A DNA stretch of 64,000 nt from a virus (lineage: Duplodnaviria > Heunggongvirae > Uroviricota > Caudoviricetes), in IMG/VR virus record IMGVR_UViG_3300045988_147321; one strand, given 5' to 3'. A program made the translations under genes and the position numbers. Numbering within the stretch: position 1 is the first letter of the stretch; each line of letters opens with the position of its first letter. Below are positions 183 to 62,358 of this stretch, one piece after another. The notes under the pieces are model-generated. The model made no database searches and was not told the DNA's origin. It saw only the letters and a program-made list of their open reading frames with translations.

Positions 183-575
183 TTATTCTACGCTTTCGAT
201 AAGAAGACCATGTTCATAACATTTAAGCTCATCGCCTTCGTACAGGAATTGGTATCCAATACCACCATTTTCATGGACATTAGGGAATAACTCATAACTC
301 ACTGAAGAGCAAATCACACCAATGCAGCGATCAACGCCTTCTCGTTCTTCAGTGCTGAAAAAATCCTCTTCGGTAAGAACATGAGTACATTGATCATCAG
401 CATAGGTCGGAAATACATGCTCAATGCAATCCGGGTGTTTTAAACCAAGCTGAGCGGCAAGCTCGAAAGCATGACGGTATTGTTCAGATCCTGGCTTGCC
501 AACAGTGATGTGCTCAATTTTGTAGATTGAAGTCGCTTTGTTGATAGTTTGCTTTACTGTTACTTTATCAGACAT
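183..575 (-). CDS. Hypothetical protein, last gene of the leftward operon
   Basis: 130-aa ORF with no recognisable motif; at the P1 upfA position by synteny. Confidence 0.45.
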   Translation of the reverse strand: MSDKVTVKQTINKATSIYKIEHITVGKPGSEQYRHAFELAAQLGLKHPDCIEHVFPTYADDQCTHVLTEEDFFSTEEREGVDRCIGVICSSVSYELFPNVHENGGIGYQFLYEGDELKCYEHGLLIESVE

Positions 576-586
576 AAAAATCCCTT

Positions 587-919
587 TTAGTTACCGCTGA
601 TAGCGCGGTTGTAATCATTAACGTTGCGATTCTTCCTGTTAATCCCCATCAGCATCGTTTCTGTATCGAGGATATACGCTGGCAGATCATCGAAATATTC
701 ACTGCTAAACTCTGGCATTCTGCACATAAATGCACTTTTGGGGGCAGGGTGGTTAACCTTTGTCGGCGTCGGCGTTAAATTCGCTGATCGACTCCCGGAG
801 CAACCGCTGAGTGTCAGCAGGAATGCGCTGGCGAACATTACCCGCCGCAACCAGTTGTTTCTGAACTTCAGCTTTTCGTTCCATTTGCCTGTCAGCATAT
901 TTGGCTTGTTCTGATTCAT
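587..919 (-). CDS. Small lipoprotein (lipobox LSGC), o-spanin-like, overlapping the 3' end of the upstream gene
   Basis: Signal peptide ending in the lipobox L-S-G-C, proline-containing mature part, starts inside gene 753-1175 in another frame. Start ambiguous (919, 898 or 838). At the P1 mlp position by synteny. Confidence 0.45.
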   Translation of the reverse strand: MNQNKPNMLTGKWNEKLKFRNNWLRRVMFASAFLLTLSGCSGSRSANLTPTPTKVNHPAPKSAFMCRMPEFSSEYFDDLPAYILDTETMLMGINRKNRNVNDYNRAISGN

Positions 920-1175
920 TTTTCACTTCCTGGCTGTGAAAATGTTGCTCTGCTTTGTTCATCGTCTCAATGGTCTGGTTAAGATCCATTATTGACTTAT
1001 CACGTTCCTTAACAGCCTGATCAAGACTGCCAATTTTCTCGATGGCTTGCTTTAGCTGATGACGTTCCCATGCAAACCCAGCACCAACAAGTGCGCAAAT
1101 CAGAACAAGAACACCAGTAGCAGCAAGTTTCTCCTTCAAAGACAAAGCTGTTTTTAACGTAGAAAAGAATGACAT
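753..1175 (-). CDS. N-terminally anchored coiled-coil periplasmic protein, i-spanin-like
   Basis: Start MSFFSTLK preceded by AGGAGG; one N-terminal transmembrane segment followed by a charged coiled-coil region; the lipoprotein gene overlaps its 3' end. At the P1 ppfA position by synteny. Confidence 0.45.
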   Translation of the reverse strand: MSFFSTLKTALSLKEKLAATGVLVLICALVGAGFAWERHQLKQAIEKIGSLDQAVKERDKSIMDLNQTIETMNKAEQHFHSQEVKNESEQAKYADRQMERKAEVQKQLVAAGNVRQRIPADTQRLLRESISEFNADADKG

Positions 1176-1214
1176 GTCTTCCTCCTGAAGAAAAATTATC
1201 AATGAAGTCCTTTG

Positions 1215-2003
1215 TTACTGTGCCGCTTTGTTTAATTCATCAAGAACAGAATCAGGAACCAAAGCAGCAACTGCGCTGGCTGTGCTGGCCTTATTTGCTG
1301 ATGCTTCCGCAAGCGCAGTACCGATAGCATGGTTATAAGCAGTTATGGCTACATTGGCGCTTTCATTCGCTCGTTCATACTGCTGTTGTAACGCAGTTGT
1401 GGGCGCTGTTGTCTGGTTGAATACAACCCCAAACTGTTCAGTTGCTACTTTCAGAGATTCAATTTGCTCTTCTGTTAGTGCTGGTGGGGGAGTGGCAGTG
1501 CCGCCGCCTGAACCAGAGCCTGACGAGCTTCCTGAGCCAGTGTTAAGGGTCTGGTTAATCTCCCCCATAGCAGCGACTAAACTTGATGTATTAAGCGCGT
1601 TTACAGCGTCCTCAAGCGATTTAGTAATAGTCACATCACCAATGGCAATAGAGATCGGCAGTTCTGATACTTCTCGCTCATTAGCACGGCAGTAAACATC
1701 CCAACCAATATCGAGTTGAAGCAGCATTGACAGATCTGCATAACCAGCCAACAGGTCCGCGTGCTTAGTTGCCAGTTCTCCAATGTTCGTTAAGCCGGTT
1801 GTGGTTGTTCTGATCGTTGAAACATAGCTGGTAATAGTGTCGGGATAGACAATTGTATCCAGAATTAATCCGGTCAATTCTTCTGCAAGCAGTTTTGCTG
1901 TGTTAGCACTGTTTCGTGCCGATGTTATGGCACCAGGTGTTTTCATCCCACCGGCGGCGGCCAATTTTTTATATGCGGATAACTGGTAGTCTTTTTCCAG
2001 CAT
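1215..2003 (-). CDS. Hypothetical protein with a Gly/Ser-rich linker
   Basis: ORF 1215-2060; internal ATG at 2003 is preceded by AGGAG. SGSGSGGG linker. P1 upfB position. Confidence 0.4.
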   Translation of the reverse strand: MLEKDYQLSAYKKLAAAGGMKTPGAITSARNSANTAKLLAEELTGLILDTIVYPDTITSYVSTIRTTTTGLTNIGELATKHADLLAGYADLSMLLQLDIGWDVYCRANEREVSELPISIAIGDVTITKSLEDAVNALNTSSLVAAMGEINQTLNTGSGSSSGSGSGGGTATPPPALTEEQIESLKVATEQFGVVFNQTTAPTTALQQQYERANESANVAITAYNHAIGTALAEASANKASTASAVAALVPDSVLDELNKAAQ

Positions 2004-2011
2004 GATATCTC

Positions 2012-2296
2012 CTAACTTACCTGAACCAGGCCGTCTCCGGACGCTACGGTAGATCCGCATGAAACAGGGTCACCAACGCATACGATCCCTTTACCATTGA
2101 CGGTAAACCATGCCCTGGTTGATATAGCTTGCCCACCGTGCGTACTGTTTCCATCGGTATGCTGTGCATATTGCTTACCATCAACTAACACTTCGACTCC
2201 GTTGACTTTAAGTAGTGCTTCACTCTCTACAGGAGGCCTGGATGGGAATCCTCCGTGCCCCGAACAAATGCTGTCTTTTGTTGCAATACTTGCCAC
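2012..2296 (-). CDS. PAAR-like small protein (possible spike-tip protein)
   Basis: 94 aa, GTG start; repeated GHGG/HGG, VNG and a GDPVSCGS motif resembling PAAR-repeat proteins. P1 upfC position. Confidence 0.35.
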   Translation of the reverse strand: MASIATKDSICSGHGGFPSRPPVESEALLKVNGVEVLVDGKQYAQHTDGNSTHGGQAISTRAWFTVNGKGIVCVGDPVSCGSTVASGDGLVQVS

Positions 2297-2377: not shown

Positions 2378-2394
2378 ATTGCTCTAATAAATAT
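2378..2394 (+). promoter_or_regulatory. C1-repressor operator-like 17-mer between divergent operons
   Basis: ATTGCTCTAATAAATAT, 16/17 match to the P1 C1 operator consensus ATTGCTCTAATAAATTT. Confidence 0.5.
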
Positions 2395-6581: not shown

Positions 6582-6657
6582 GATGGTGTAGCTCAGCGGT
6601 TAGAGCGGTTGACTGTTAATCAACGGGTCGATGGTTCAAATCCATCCACCATCGCCA
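6582..6657 (+). tRNA. tRNA-Asn (anticodon GTT)
   Basis: Manual cloverleaf: 7-bp acceptor stem GATGGTG/CACCATC, D-arm GCTCAGCGGTTAGAGC, anticodon loop CTGTTAA, T-arm GATGGTTCAAATCCATC, CCA end. Confidence 0.8.
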
Positions 6658-6659
6658 AT

Positions 6660-6735
6660 GCCGGTTTAGCTCAGTTGGTAGAGCGCCTGCCTTGTAAGCA
6701 GGATGTCAGCGGTTCGAGTCCGTTAATCGGCACCA
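6660..6735 (+). tRNA. tRNA-Thr (anticodon TGT)
   Basis: Manual cloverleaf: acceptor GCCGGTT/AATCGGC (one G-U), anticodon loop CTTGTAA, T-arm GGTTCGAGTCC, CCA end; 2 nt after tRNA-Asn. Confidence 0.8.
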
Positions 6736-6738
6736 GCA

Positions 6739-7540
6739 CAACAGGTAAGGGTATTTTGCGACGTCGGAGATCGCCGAGCTTGGCAGAGGGTTCGAATCCC
6801 TACGAAGTACCCTTACCGTTGTGATGAATGCGCAGGCTGATGCGCGAAAGACATTGCAGCTATTGCGGAAAAGAGCTGTTCGGCGGGGCAATTAAACGCC
6901 CGTGAGAGTCTGAAATAACCGCAAGCCGGAGATCAGCACCGGTCATCACAACACAACAGGTAAGGGCATTCTCCCTTATGGGGCTTGGCTTAAATGCATC
7001 GAGTGCTCTTACCGTTGTGATGAAGTGCAGCTCTTTGAAGCAACCAGAAGATAAGCATCTGGCTTCACAACATAAACCGCAGGAACGACCAATAAACGGT
7101 AGTCCGTATGGAGAACACCCCGTTGAGGAAGAGGCCTGGCCGGAACCGTAACCGGCACTACAACGTTGAGAACACTGGCGTAACGGGGTCATATCCCAAT
7201 CTACGAATAAATGTTGCGTTGCAGCGTGACAACCAGTGTTCTCAACATTGTGGTGAATGCACAGGCTGATGTGCCGCAACTACAGTAGTGCGCGCTTTGC
7301 GGGGCTTGCTACAACCCTGTGTCGGAGTTCAGCACCGACCATCACAGTTTGATTCTCTGGCATGAGCATAACGCTGAAATAAGTCCAGTCTGGTGCGGCC
7401 CGATCACTCGCCGTTAGCTCCACGAAACGGAGCACGTAACAGGTAAGAGCATTCTCCTGTAACGGGTTCATATCCCAATCTACAGGTCCACCAGGAATGC
7501 TCTTTCCGTTGCGGTGAATGCGGCTAAGCGCACGCGGGGA
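6739..7540 (+). repeat. Four degenerate copies of a roughly 100-nt hairpin element in an ORF-poor region downstream of the tRNAs
   Basis: Shared modules: AACAGGTAAG(G/A)GCATTCTCC arm, CCGTTG(T/C)G(A/G)TGAATGC tail, GTAACGGGG(T)TCATATCCCAATCTAC loop; long perfect stems; copy 1 contains a tRNA T-arm-like GAGGGTTCGAATCCCT. Confidence 0.5.
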
Positions 7541-8362: not shown

Positions 8363-8438
8363 GGCCCTTTAGCTCAGTGGTTAGAGCTGGCGACTCATAA
8401 TCGCACGGTCACCGGTTCAAGTCCGGTAGGGGCCACCA
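8363..8438 (+). tRNA. tRNA with CAT anticodon, most similar to E. coli tRNA-Ile2 (ileX, lysidine-modified) rather than tRNA-Met
   Basis: Manual fold: acceptor GGCCCTT/AGGGGCC, anticodon loop CTCATAA, T-arm ACCGGTTCAAGTCCGGT, CCA end; near-identical to ileX as I recall it. Confidence 0.75.
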
Positions 8439-48733: not shown

Positions 48734-51464
<2,731 letters not shown>

Positions 51465-51477
51465 CCACCAAAAATAA

Positions 51478-51495
51478 CCCCGGCGGCTGCCGGGG
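51478..51495. terminator. Bidirectional intrinsic terminator
   Basis: CCCCGGC-ggct-GCCGGGG with an A-tract before and TTCTCGTT after. Confidence 0.55.
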
Positions 51496-51508
51496 TTCTC
51501 GTTAACTA

Positions 51509-51763
51509 TTATCGCCTTCGCCTGCGTGCCATATATTTGCGCACCGCGCGGCGTGGACAATCTGAAGCGGTTTCTTTCTGCTGCATCAATCTTGCAGCCA
51601 TGCTCAAAAATGTCAGGCACAGCCGAAGCCCGGCATACAATAGCGGTTCCAGTGGCCACGTCTCATTGAGCACATATACCGCCATGAAAATCGAGTCGAA
51701 AACTATCGCCGCCAGCGATAACTTCATTGTCGAAAGTCGGCGGAGCTGCCGGAGTTTATTCAT
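51509..51763 (-). CDS. Small two-segment membrane protein downstream of lyz (possible holin-like lysis accessory protein)
   Basis: 84 aa; two hydrophobic stretches and a basic tail (ARRRRR); 8-nt overlap with the lyz stop. Confidence 0.35.
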   Translation of the reverse strand: MNKLRQLRRLSTMKLSLAAIVFDSIFMAVYVLNETWPLEPLLYAGLRLCLTFLSMAARLMQQKETASDCPRRAVRKYMARRRRR

Positions 51764-52313
51764 TGACCAGTCCCGTCAGGCAAAGCTGGCGTTCTTTTTC
51801 ACGGCGAATCTTTAAACCTCGCAGGGGCACGCCGTTACTGTTCACGAAATCAGGGAGATGGTTACACATATTCACCCATTCCCCTTTCTGCGCCCACTTG
51901 TGGATGGACGTTTCTACTCGCATGCCTCGCGCTTTGCTGTAGTAGGTCCGTAAGCTATTGCATCCCATATTGAATGCCGCGCTTGTCATTGCACTGAAGG
52001 CATTATCGGGCATGTCTTTGCCCCGGAAGTGCTGATTAATACAGCGTTCAGCGATCAGGATATTCTTTTCCCAATCAGCGGCGATTTGCTGGTCTGTTTT
52101 TCGCACACCCGGCGTTACCCCGTGTGTATTACCGATCCCGTCAGTCCATACCCCTGCCGGGCACATGTATGGATCACGTCGGCAACCTTCAGCGTTACCA
52201 ATCAGCTCAAGCCCCGCCTGGTTGGTTCGCACATTGCCATTACCCATCACGATGGTAATCATCACCGCGATAGCGCAAATTGCACCGCCTCCTGCGGCTG
52301 TTTTTCCCTTCAT
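51756..52313 (-). CDS. lyz: SAR endolysin (T4-lysozyme-like muramidase with an N-terminal signal-anchor-release segment)
   Basis: 185 aa from MKGKTAAGGGAICAIAVMITIV; catalytic region EGCRRDPYMCPAGVWTDGIGNT. Confidence 0.8.
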   Translation of the reverse strand: MKGKTAAGGGAICAIAVMITIVMGNGNVRTNQAGLELIGNAEGCRRDPYMCPAGVWTDGIGNTHGVTPGVRKTDQQIAADWEKNILIAERCINQHFRGKDMPDNAFSAMTSAAFNMGCNSLRTYYSKARGMRVETSIHKWAQKGEWVNMCNHLPDFVNSNGVPLRGLKIRREKERQLCLTGLVNE

Positions 52314-60661: not shown

Positions 60662-61273
60662 TTAATTTCCTGCTTTCAGTTGCTTAAGACGGCGTTTGAG
60701 TTCGCCATTTCGGGCCTTTTCGTTATTGAGTCGGCCTGTCTCCTTATCCAGCTTCGCCCGCAAATCAGTGATCTGCTGTTGATTGAAAGACACCGAGTTC
60801 TGCGCTGATTTATAAGCGGCAACCACCTGAGCATTCCGCTGTTTTGCCTCTTGCAGGCGCTGAAAGTTGGATTTTACTGCCGGTTTCTTGTCTACCGGAT
60901 TGGCAACACGTTTCGCTTTGGCGATCAGTGATTTCTGGAATTTTGCGGAGTTTTTGCGGGCCGCTTGCCCCATGACGGTACCAAGCGTCTTGATATCCGG
61001 CGACTGAGCGTTAGGAATAGCTTTTCCATTCAGCCTCACAGACGATATATCGCCAGTATCGTTTACCTGTATGGCAAGAATTTGTCCGTCGTTAAGAACC
61101 AGCTTTGCGGTTTTAACTTTAACGCCATCTTTCGTTGTTGCGCGGTTGCTGGAGTCAACCTCAATTACCGTAACACCGGTTTTATTGATCGCCGCGATAA
61201 GGGATTTCAGCCCCTTTTCATTAACCTGGTCAAAATCGACCGTTGCATACTTATTTTTCGTCATCTGACACAT
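60662..61273 (-). CDS. hdf: Basic coiled-coil protein upstream of darA
   Basis: 203-aa ORF; synteny. Confidence 0.45.
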   Translation of the reverse strand: MCQMTKNKYATVDFDQVNEKGLKSLIAAINKTGVTVIEVDSSNRATTKDGVKVKTAKLVLNDGQILAIQVNDTGDISSVRLNGKAIPNAQSPDIKTLGTVMGQAARKNSAKFQKSLIAKAKRVANPVDKKPAVKSNFQRLQEAKQRNAQVVAAYKSAQNSVSFNQQQITDLRAKLDKETGRLNNEKARNGELKRRLKQLKAGN

Positions 61274-61694
61274 CCTGTGCGAGATTTATTACGTAACTTC
61301 TGCGGATTTGCTGAGTAACAGGGAAAATCCGATACAACGGGTTAATGAACGAGTCGCCATGCGTAACCATGACGTTGAAATGCCACAGTCGCTCTCCTTT
61401 ACCCATATATTCAGTGGGTATGTACAACCATTCACTGTTTTCGCCCTGTTCAGCCGACGTCAAACAACGTTGTTCGCCTTCAATCACTGTCGTCGGCTTC
61501 TGAACATCGCGGATCCAATATCTGACCGTTGCGCCGCGCAAAAACGGGAATTTAGACCGGTATTTGAACGGCACCCGGATGAAACCCGGTTTAATTTCCA
61601 CATCACCAAGTTCTAAATGCGTGATGTCCTTGCGTTTTAGCAAATAGCGATCGGCTAAGGCTAACGCAAGAACGCATACACCCCAGCCAATCAT
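61251..61694 (-). CDS. lydB: Antiholin-like protein
   Basis: 147-aa ORF immediately after the holin gene; synteny. Confidence 0.45.
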   Translation of the reverse strand: MIGWGVCVLALALADRYLLKRKDITHLELGDVEIKPGFIRVPFKYRSKFPFLRGATVRYWIRDVQKPTTVIEGEQRCLTSAEQGENSEWLYIPTEYMGKGERLWHFNVMVTHGDSFINPLYRIFPVTQQIRRSYVINLAQDVSDDEK

Positions 61695-62020
61695 TTCCCG
61701 CCTCCCTTTTTCACCAAACTTGTAAGAACATTCAGAATGCTATCGATATTCACTCGTTTCATCCCTGAAATCACCTCATGACCGTTATTGCTGGCTATCG
61801 TTACCATTAAGTACGTAATTGATAACTCCCAGCCCTCGTGTTGCCCCAATAGGTACGCCACCGCGCCAGCTGTCACTGCAACAAAGATCTCCGTAACCAA
61901 TCCCAACAAATTGCCAGACTGGCGACCGTCTCGGACATCCATCAGGAACGTGCCTATCCCACCAATTACTGAAAGCAGGAGCGCAATAGCAACTGGAGCT
62001 AATTCCTGTGTGTCAAGCAC
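61691..62020 (-). CDS. lydA: Holin
   Basis: 109 aa with three hydrophobic segments and a charged C-terminus. Confidence 0.55.
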   Translation of the reverse strand: MLDTQELAPVAIALLLSVIGGIGTFLMDVRDGRQSGNLLGLVTEIFVAVTAGAVAYLLGQHEGWELSITYLMVTIASNNGHEVISGMKRVNIDSILNVLTSLVKKGGGK

Positions 62021-62094: not shown

Positions 62095-62358
62095 TTACCT
62101 ATTCAACCGACTTTTGGAACCTTCAATAATAAGCCTGCTATTGGCGCTGAAAATAAGAACCATGCAGCTCTGAAGGCTTTCATTCATGTCCTTATATTCC
62201 GCGAGATACATGCCAATAAAGCCAGCAAGTACGGCGGAAATACATTCGGCCAGCAATTTCTTGCATGAAGACTCGTAACGGTTTTCACATAGCCCACTCA
62301 AATACGAATACACCCCACCAAGAAGGGATAACATCACGATATGTACATAAAATGTCAT
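62095..62358 (-). CDS. Small two-segment membrane protein (holin-like)
   Basis: 87-aa ORF; possibly P1 lydC. Confidence 0.35.
   Translation of the reverse strand: MTFYVHIVMLSLLGGVYSYLSGLCENRYESSCKKLLAECISAVLAGFIGMYLAEYKDMNESLQSCMVLIFSANSRLIIEGSKSRLNR

Follow-up and report, generated by a model that had tools for sequence, protein, structure and literature searches.

The overlapping ppfA and mlp genes of a P1-like phage-plasmid encode a predicted two-component spanin

The overlapping genes ppfA and mlp very probably encode the predicted two-component spanin of a P1-like phage, with PpfA as the candidate inner-membrane subunit (i-spanin) and Mlp as the candidate outer-membrane lipoprotein subunit (o-spanin). 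This reading is based on the presence of all architectural hallmarks of such a pair: a transmembrane domain (TMD), a hinged helical domain, an LSGC lipobox followed by Ser, a Pro-rich lipoprotein, and a gene overlap in the +1 register. The window studied is the whole stretch of 64,000 nucleotides from IMG/VR record IMGVR_UViG_3300045988_147321. It represents a P1-like phage-plasmid whose first 3 kb match P1-like phages over the full length: Escherichia phage Ro157c2YLVW shares 98.6% DNA identity with it, several P1 isolates share ~97.5%, and the P1 reference shares 95.3%.

The candidate i-spanin gene ppfA (positions 753..1175, minus strand, stop codon included) encodes a protein of 140 amino acids that is identical to P1 PpfA (P1_gp064). 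The candidate o-spanin gene mlp (587..919, minus strand, stop codon included) encodes a lipoprotein precursor of 110 amino acids with two substitutions relative to P1 Mlp (P1_gp063), S7N and V32A. Translation of mlp starts at ppfA codon 86 in the +1 register and extends 166 nt beyond the ppfA stop, giving a two-frame stretch of 167 nt (753..919, minus strand) that comprises ppfA codons 86–140 and mlp codons 1–56. Among the embedded, overlapped and separated arrangements distinguished by Summer 2007 and Kongari 2018, the adjacent genes fall into the overlapped class. A Shine-Dalgarno sequence AGGAGG (1181..1186, minus strand) is located 5 nt upstream of the ppfA ATG; it is also given in the spanin catalogue and kept in relatives. 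The Shine-Dalgarno sequence of mlp, AGGAAG (926..931, minus strand), is located 6 nt upstream of the mlp ATG, and its bases double as codons for an invariant Gln-Glu of PpfA.

Both genes belong to a leftward string upfC-upfB-ppfA-mlp-upfA (183..2296, minus strand) of tightly spaced or overlapping genes, which starts with upfC (PAAR; 2012-2296, minus strand), continues with upfB between upfC and ppfA (1215-2060, minus strand), and closes with upfA (183-575, minus strand). A terminator-like hairpin (171-155) follows directly after upfA. Part of oriR occupies about positions 1-168 of the window, and the string ends beside oriR and repA, as stated in the original prediction of a leftward operon next to the origin. 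The operon partner UpfC is a probable spike-tip protein: it gave a Pfam PAAR score of 26.5 bits, just below the 27-bit cut-off, and matched phrog_281 at 4e-30; the P1 record compares it to T4 gp5.4. UpfB, encoded in the same operon, is an Ala/Ser/Thr-rich protein of unknown function that carries a Gly/Ser run. As in P1, three tRNA genes are located downstream of the dmt region (6582-6654, 6660-6732, and 8363-8435, plus strand).

Hydropathy analysis of PpfA revealed a sole hydrophobic segment. The highest-scoring 19-residue Kyte–Doolittle window covered amino acids 17-35 (LAATGVLVLICALVGAGFA) with a mean of 2.35, and the single N-terminal transmembrane segment was assigned to codons 17-36 (1068..1127, minus strand). 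With a net charge of +2 in its N-terminal flank, PpfA is predicted to be a type II inner-membrane protein. Its only Cys (C27) is located within the TMD, in agreement with the remark in the spanin catalogue ("one in TMD"). The periplasmic part is 36% charged and exhibits a hydrophobic heptad pattern at approximately amino acids 38-80. An AlphaFold2 monomer model, computed with 18 homologues and of modest confidence (mean pLDDT 69), contained a helix at 13-110, a low-confidence break at 111-119 (pLDDT <50 at 113-118), and a second helix at 120-138, as assigned by DSSP on the model. The predicted break or hinge (AGNVRQRIP, codons 111-119; 819..845, minus strand) separates the long helix from the short C-terminal one. 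Taken from the monomer model and the heptad pattern, PpfA would thus possess a helical, coiled-coil periplasmic domain with a linker. Searching viral structures for the fold of the PpfA model produced no meaningful match, which is not surprising for a long helix.

Mlp carries a predicted signal peptide of 39 amino acids (aa 1-39; 803..919, minus strand), composed of an unusually long basic n-region (aa 1-27, seven Lys/Arg) and the hydrophobic core VMFASAFLLTL. The lipobox L-S-G-C (aa 37-40; 800..811, minus strand) contains the predicted acylated Cys40 and is followed by Ser41 at position +2, so that a lipobox Cys without Asp at +2, the signal for retention in the inner membrane, is present, as required of an o-spanin; the length of the signal peptide is unusual. 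The catalogue of Kongari et al. 2018 gives a LipoP cleavage site of Mlp at residue 39 with the remark "Too long signal sequence". Mature Mlp (590..802, minus strand) is a small, proline-rich protein of 71 amino acids with six Pro, as is typical of o-spanins. It consists of a Pro/Thr-rich linker (TPTPTKVNHPAPK), a conserved AFMC-x-MP motif, and a conserved C-terminal INRKNRNVN-x-YNR motif. One further Cys, C66 (722-724), is invariant among the aligned relatives; as possible sites of homotypic disulfides there are thus one periplasmic Cys in Mlp and none in PpfA outside the TMD. The AlphaFold2 model of Mlp had a low pLDDT of 55 and was used for the signal-peptide helix and the C-terminal helix only.

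The upstream ATG of mlp follows an AGGAAG in the window and in the most distant relative; in three diverged relatives the sequence at this place is AGGAGG. An internal start at codon 24, which is TTG in the window and ATG in three relatives, would yield a canonical signal peptide of 16 residues. It was rejected as the main start because codon 24 lacks a Shine-Dalgarno sequence and is not Met in the most distant relative (L089), while the upstream Shine-Dalgarno sequence and ATG are kept in all lineages. Given the conserved upstream signals and the unsupported internal start, the long basic n-region of Mlp seems to be real. The gene is usually missed or truncated by gene callers, which explains the small number of full-length Mlp sequences in the protein search. 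In MH445380.1 (L002), 'Rz1' is annotated as a 43-aa ORF without signal peptide and lipobox (1088-1219), and many Mlp entries in databases are likewise shortened, to 62-65 aa, by an internal start.

The spanin assignment of ppfA and mlp is already known from catalogue, literature and reference annotation. In Table S1 of Kongari et al. 2018, P1 gp064 appears as overlapped i-spanin and gp063 as overlapped o-spanin of a family "P1", with one periplasmic Cys in gp063, and P7 is entered likewise; the PpfA sequence of the window is identical to the P1 entry. A study from 2022 (PMC9025707) also names ppfA and mlp as P1 spanin genes, identified from predicted features and credited to Summer et al. 2007. 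In the RefSeq records of P1 and P7, Mlp is named "Rz-like spanin", several records of P1-like phages use Rz/Rz1 names, and both proteins belong to "Rz-like spanin" families in PHROGs. The overlapped i-spanin/o-spanin arrangement of the original prediction, with a 140-aa protein carrying one N-terminal transmembrane segment and a coiled-coil periplasmic domain, and an LSGC lipoprotein gene that starts within its 3' end in another frame and extends beyond it, therefore agrees with the sequence features determined here as well as with these sources. It was also stated there that these positions are annotated in P1 only as a periplasmic protein and a lipoprotein. This applies to the original P1 annotation alone, in which mlp was in addition noted as 'possibly involved in regulation of lysis (by homology)'. 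In PMC9025707 and in Table S1 of bioRxiv 10.64898/2025.12.28.696737 the labels are swapped (ppfA as o-spanin, mlp as i-spanin); they are considered reversed because PpfA has the transmembrane segment and Mlp the lipobox. The labels in the Kongari 2018 table are the right way round.

Both genes were intact in 80/80 P1-like loci from IMG/VR, one of which has lost 6 nt, and thereby two codons per frame, with both frames still open. Homologues of PpfA with ~60% identity were found on P1-like contigs of 83-94 kb, including proteins named from Salmonella, Cronobacter and Klebsiella, and one with 31% identity on a viral contig of 94 kb. In four diverged lineages the overlapped lipoprotein gene was retained in the +1 register with overlaps of 164-179 nt. 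The lipobox of the relatives reads LSAC, LNGC or LNAC, and the AFMC-x-MP and C-terminal INRKN-x-NVN-x-YNR motifs are kept. Overlap, lipobox, and the Shine-Dalgarno sequence with ATG of mlp were retained down to 31% PpfA identity. The intact frames in all 80 loci and in the four diverged lineages indicate that ppfA and mlp are not a chance pair of ORFs. The C-terminal regions were the best-conserved parts of both PpfA and Mlp, as would be expected if they formed a contact surface. A published comparison of 77 P1-like phage-plasmids counts ppfA and mlp among their 21 most conserved genes (PMC9603915).

Only three distant full-length relatives emerged when 1.84 billion representatives were searched exhaustively with a HMMER profile, which shows that the PpfA family is very narrow; tblastn against phage genomes retrieved P1-like phages only. 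Distant homologues within a lysis cassette were sought in this way, but the one of the three that could be placed (L089) has the upfC-upfB context; a scan for a second relative found nothing. Every relative that could be placed showed the context upfC-upfB-ppfA-mlp next to repA, none beside a holin or endolysin gene. Because this gene context is the same in all relatives, the neighborhood gives no independent support for a spanin role. The region between mlp and repA is variable among the sequences compared. In diverged elements, the gene after mlp is a member of the Phage_gp49_66 family (PF13876), which either replaces upfA or precedes it (L004, 6601-6963; L005, 6600-6959; L089, about 6870-7226), and an insertion of blaCTX-M-55 in upfA has been reported (PMC9603915).

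Some public assemblies carry single-base deletions at differing points within the ppfA/mlp overlap (window positions 753-919; L090-L093, P0003, P0019, P0039, P0041), for example an A5 run shortened to A4 directly ahead of the mlp ATG. In each case the N-terminus of PpfA becomes joined to the Mlp frame, which gives an ORF of 193-195 aa. Seven clusters of 195-aa fusion ORFs comprised 78 member sequences, for the most part from automated Logan assemblies; such fusions occurred in 0/80 IMG/VR loci. They are located in short homopolymer or repeated-base runs; together with their origin from mostly automated assemblies, this suggests that many may be sequencing errors. The frame-fusing deletions may thus represent either sequencing errors or real loss-of-function variants.

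Profile comparisons related both proteins to characterized spanin families. PpfA matched the 'Rz-like spanin' family phrog_89 at 5e-25 over nearly its full length, the same family that was matched by P2 LysB at 6e-61. Mlp matched phrog_30284, also an 'Rz-like spanin' family, at 2e-77, and the cross-hits were reciprocal (Mlp to phrog_456, P2 LysC to phrog_30284). Alignment of a profile of Mlp relatives with P2 LysC by hhalign gave a probability of 92.8% (E = 4e-7, 35% identity over 62 columns) and included a common PK...C-x-MP motif. In NCBIfam, the top match of PpfA was the LysB model TIGR03495, with 18.2 bits against a curated cut-off of 92.75, and the sole match of Mlp was the LysC model NF038368, with 14.3 bits against a cut-off of 27. 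Direct profile alignments of PpfA with P2 LysB and with P22 Rz were not significant, even with distant relatives added, and coiled-coil-rich sequences are known to draw spurious profile matches. A Pfam search with E values up to 0.1 revealed no match to lambda Rz (Phage_lysis), and hhalign against the lambda-type P22 Rz gave 0.8%. In Pfam, NCBIfam, PADLOC and PDB, neither protein matched a non-lysis lipoprotein family, a defense family or a solved structure; homology to a non-lysis lipoprotein family had been named in the original prediction as a finding that would count against it. Taken together, the profile matches suggest that the ppfA/mlp pair is probably a remote homologue of P2 LysB/LysC that stands outside those curated families.

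The other lysis genes are dispersed in the window, at the distances originally stated (about 50 kb to lyz and about 60 kb to lydA/lydB). The endolysin gene lyz (51759-52313, minus strand) is located 50.6 kb from ppfA/mlp, with lydD/lydE at 51447-51763; lydB/lydA (61254-62020) are about 60 kb away, and lydC is found at about 62122-62340 (minus strand). On the P1 circle, the shorter arcs from ppfA/mlp amount to about 42 kb to lyz and 32 kb to lydA/lydB. A location within a lysis cassette is usual for spanin genes and not obligatory, T4 being an exception; here, the neighbors are upfB and upfA. The dispersed lysis genes of P1 have already been described as an atypical trait (PMC9025707). LydA, LydD and Lyz of the window are 100% identical to the P1 proteins, LydB and LydE about 98.6%. 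The holin homologue LydC is 67% identical to P1 LydC over 73/93 residues; by sequence comparison it is the variable member of the lysis set, in line with PMC9025707, where LydC is named as the only product to differ between P1 and P7.

The original prediction also considered a possible control of the operon by C1, which is not supported. The C1 operator at 2378..2394 (plus strand; ATTGCTCTAATAAATAT) is equivalent to P1 Op68/Odmt; according to the P1 record it belongs to Pdmt, a promoter that points rightward, and not to the leftward operon. A P1vir RNA-seq preprint (Table S1) gives an induction of ~7-8 log2 units at 10 min for uhr, hrdC and dmt, whereas upfB, ppfA and mlp were unchanged. At 20 min, small and non-significant rises were listed for upfB (4.0), ppfA (3.1) and mlp (1.5), a pattern like that of lyz (3.2), gene 23 (3.1) and prt (4.0). 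As the counts were low and the source is a preprint, the resemblance of the ppfA/mlp timing to that of late genes such as lyz is only a hint. A search of the minus strand between 560 and 2480 for Lpa-type late promoters found no such motif. The motif used was built from few examples, LPlyz, LPdar and similar sites of the window, and recovers LPlyz and LPdar. In the same region, no convincing sigma-70 promoter was found for upfC-upfB-ppfA-mlp-upfA; the P1 record contains only two predicted sigma-70 promoters for the operon, both inside upfB. That no promoter was found tying the operon to the late regulon was counted against the spanin reading.

In a genome-wide CRISPRi screen, the plating efficiency of P1 was 0.24 and 0.19 when mlp was targeted, and 1.3 and 1.2 when ppfA was targeted. 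Both genes were scored as non-essential, and so were upfB and upfC. In the same study lambda Rz was scored as essential, and targeting of P1 lyz gave a value of 0.05. This shows that ppfA and mlp are not strictly needed for plaque formation under the CRISPRi conditions, that is, knock-down with a plaque read-out. Since the knock-down was scored as plaques and not as lysis morphology of a deletion mutant, the result falls short of refuting the spanin reading. The lack of periplasmic Cys in PpfA, and a location away from holin and endolysin genes in every relative that could be placed, likewise weigh against this reading.

From the lambda Rz/Rz1 system we infer the topology of the pair, the contact between PpfA and Mlp, and the fusion step. 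PpfA would be anchored in the inner membrane by its single N-terminal transmembrane helix (N-in, C-out) and would extend into the periplasm as a rod of ~100 residues that is helical and probably a coiled coil. Mlp would be exported, acylated at Cys40, cut by signal peptidase II, and finally delivered to the outer membrane, where it would reside in the inner leaflet. Binding between the C-terminal parts of both proteins would give a complex that reaches across the periplasm and passes through the peptidoglycan mesh. When the wall has been degraded by the Lyz endolysin, at a time set by the Lyd holins and antiholin, the complexes may become free to move and change shape. They would then draw both membranes together and fuse them, so that the outer membrane is removed as the last barrier to release.

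The location of the pair beside the plasmid origin and remote from the remaining lysis genes would fit a non-lysis role. A prophage-expressed outer-membrane lipoprotein could, for example, serve in superinfection exclusion or receptor masking, as T5 Llp or lambdoid Cor/Bor, with PpfA as its inner-membrane partner. Such a non-lysis role in the envelope would also fit the sigma-70 promoters, the only type predicted in the P1 record, the missing late-promoter motif, and plating that was not reduced by the knock-down. We nevertheless consider it very unlikely: neither protein resembles such families in Pfam, NCBIfam, PADLOC or PDB, the sole family-level similarities are to spanins, and the transcripts were not seen at 10 min and weak at 20 min, in a late-gene-like manner; the strict +1 overlap, together with C-termini that are conserved in both proteins, agrees instead with an obligate two-protein complex. 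The tight leftward string shared with upfC and upfB, kept in every relative examined, could alternatively point to a function at the start of infection, in which the pair together with the PAAR spike-tip protein UpfC and with UpfB helps, for example, the tail tip or the DNA across the periplasm. A Sec/SPII-dependent lipoprotein and a type II membrane protein, however, belong to the envelope of the infected cell and are unexpected in virions. As the PpfA and Mlp sequences show no resemblance to virion proteins, and all four genes (upfB, upfC, ppfA, mlp) are non-essential for plating, an entry role appears hardly credible.

The knock-down without plaque defect bears on two further readings. The pair could be a decaying or redundant spanin relic, with P1 breaching the outer membrane by another route, and decay would agree with the 195-aa ORFs that arise by single-base deletion and frame fusion in some public assemblies. 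Yet the genes and their translation signals persist across lineages with as little as 31% PpfA identity, all 80 IMG/VR loci have two intact frames, the pair ranks among the most conserved genes of P1-like phage-plasmids, and the fusions lie in homopolymer or repeat runs of mostly automated assemblies, where many may be sequencing errors; a relic is therefore highly improbable. A variant that retains the lysis function is unlikely, if less so: a P1-type spanin might be regulated unlike cassette spanins, as its own unit beside oriR that has no recognizable Lpa promoter or C1 operator, with the conserved 27-residue basic extension of the Mlp signal peptide delaying or tuning export or maturation, and with a need for the pair that is conditional on host or conditions. 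Such a conditional requirement, if true, would explain the missing plaque phenotype. We therefore retain the two-component spanin of the P1-like phage as the preferred assignment of ppfA and mlp.

Overall, little is added to what was in literature and databases beforehand, namely the scattered P1 lysis genes and the spanin assignment of ppfA/mlp. New are the persistence of the overlap, the lipobox, and the Shine-Dalgarno sequence with ATG of mlp to 31% PpfA identity, and the apparent remote homology to P2 LysB/LysC. The same applies to the regulatory and phenotypic evidence compiled for the pair: C1 control is unsupported, the published RNA-seq data are late-like, a late promoter motif was not detected on the minus strand at 560-2480, and the CRISPRi data show no plaque defect. 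For practical use, it should be considered that gene callers often overlook or truncate mlp, and that the subunit labels are swapped in two recent sources.

The LysB/LysC pair of P2 stands at the end of a classical lysis cassette, adjacent to the holin and endolysin genes. Like ppfA and mlp, its genes overlap, and the lipoprotein gene reaches beyond the i-spanin gene. The pairs differ in that LysB has two periplasmic Cys and LysC four, whereas PpfA has none and Mlp one, and in that the P1-type genes are unlinked to lysis genes. Lambda Rz/Rz1 share the predicted topology, a type II inner-membrane coiled-coil protein with a small outer-membrane lipoprotein, and the lipoprotein gene is likewise in the +1 register. 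In contrast to the P1-type pair, Rz1 is wholly embedded in Rz while mlp reaches past ppfA, the Rz/Rz1 genes are part of a lysis cassette, and the proteins form intermolecular disulfides, whereas PpfA has no periplasmic Cys and Mlp a single one; sequence similarity between Rz/Rz1 and PpfA/Mlp was not detectable. T4 PseT.3/PseT.2 resemble ppfA/mlp in that their genes are distant from the holin and endolysin genes, but are separated instead of overlapped. The closest counterparts are PpfA (gp064) and Mlp (gp063) of P1 and P7, which form the family "P1" of Kongari 2018 and represent the same gene pair, with nothing of substance differing: coordinates, overlap and ribosome-binding sites are the same in P1 and the window, at 95% DNA identity in this region.
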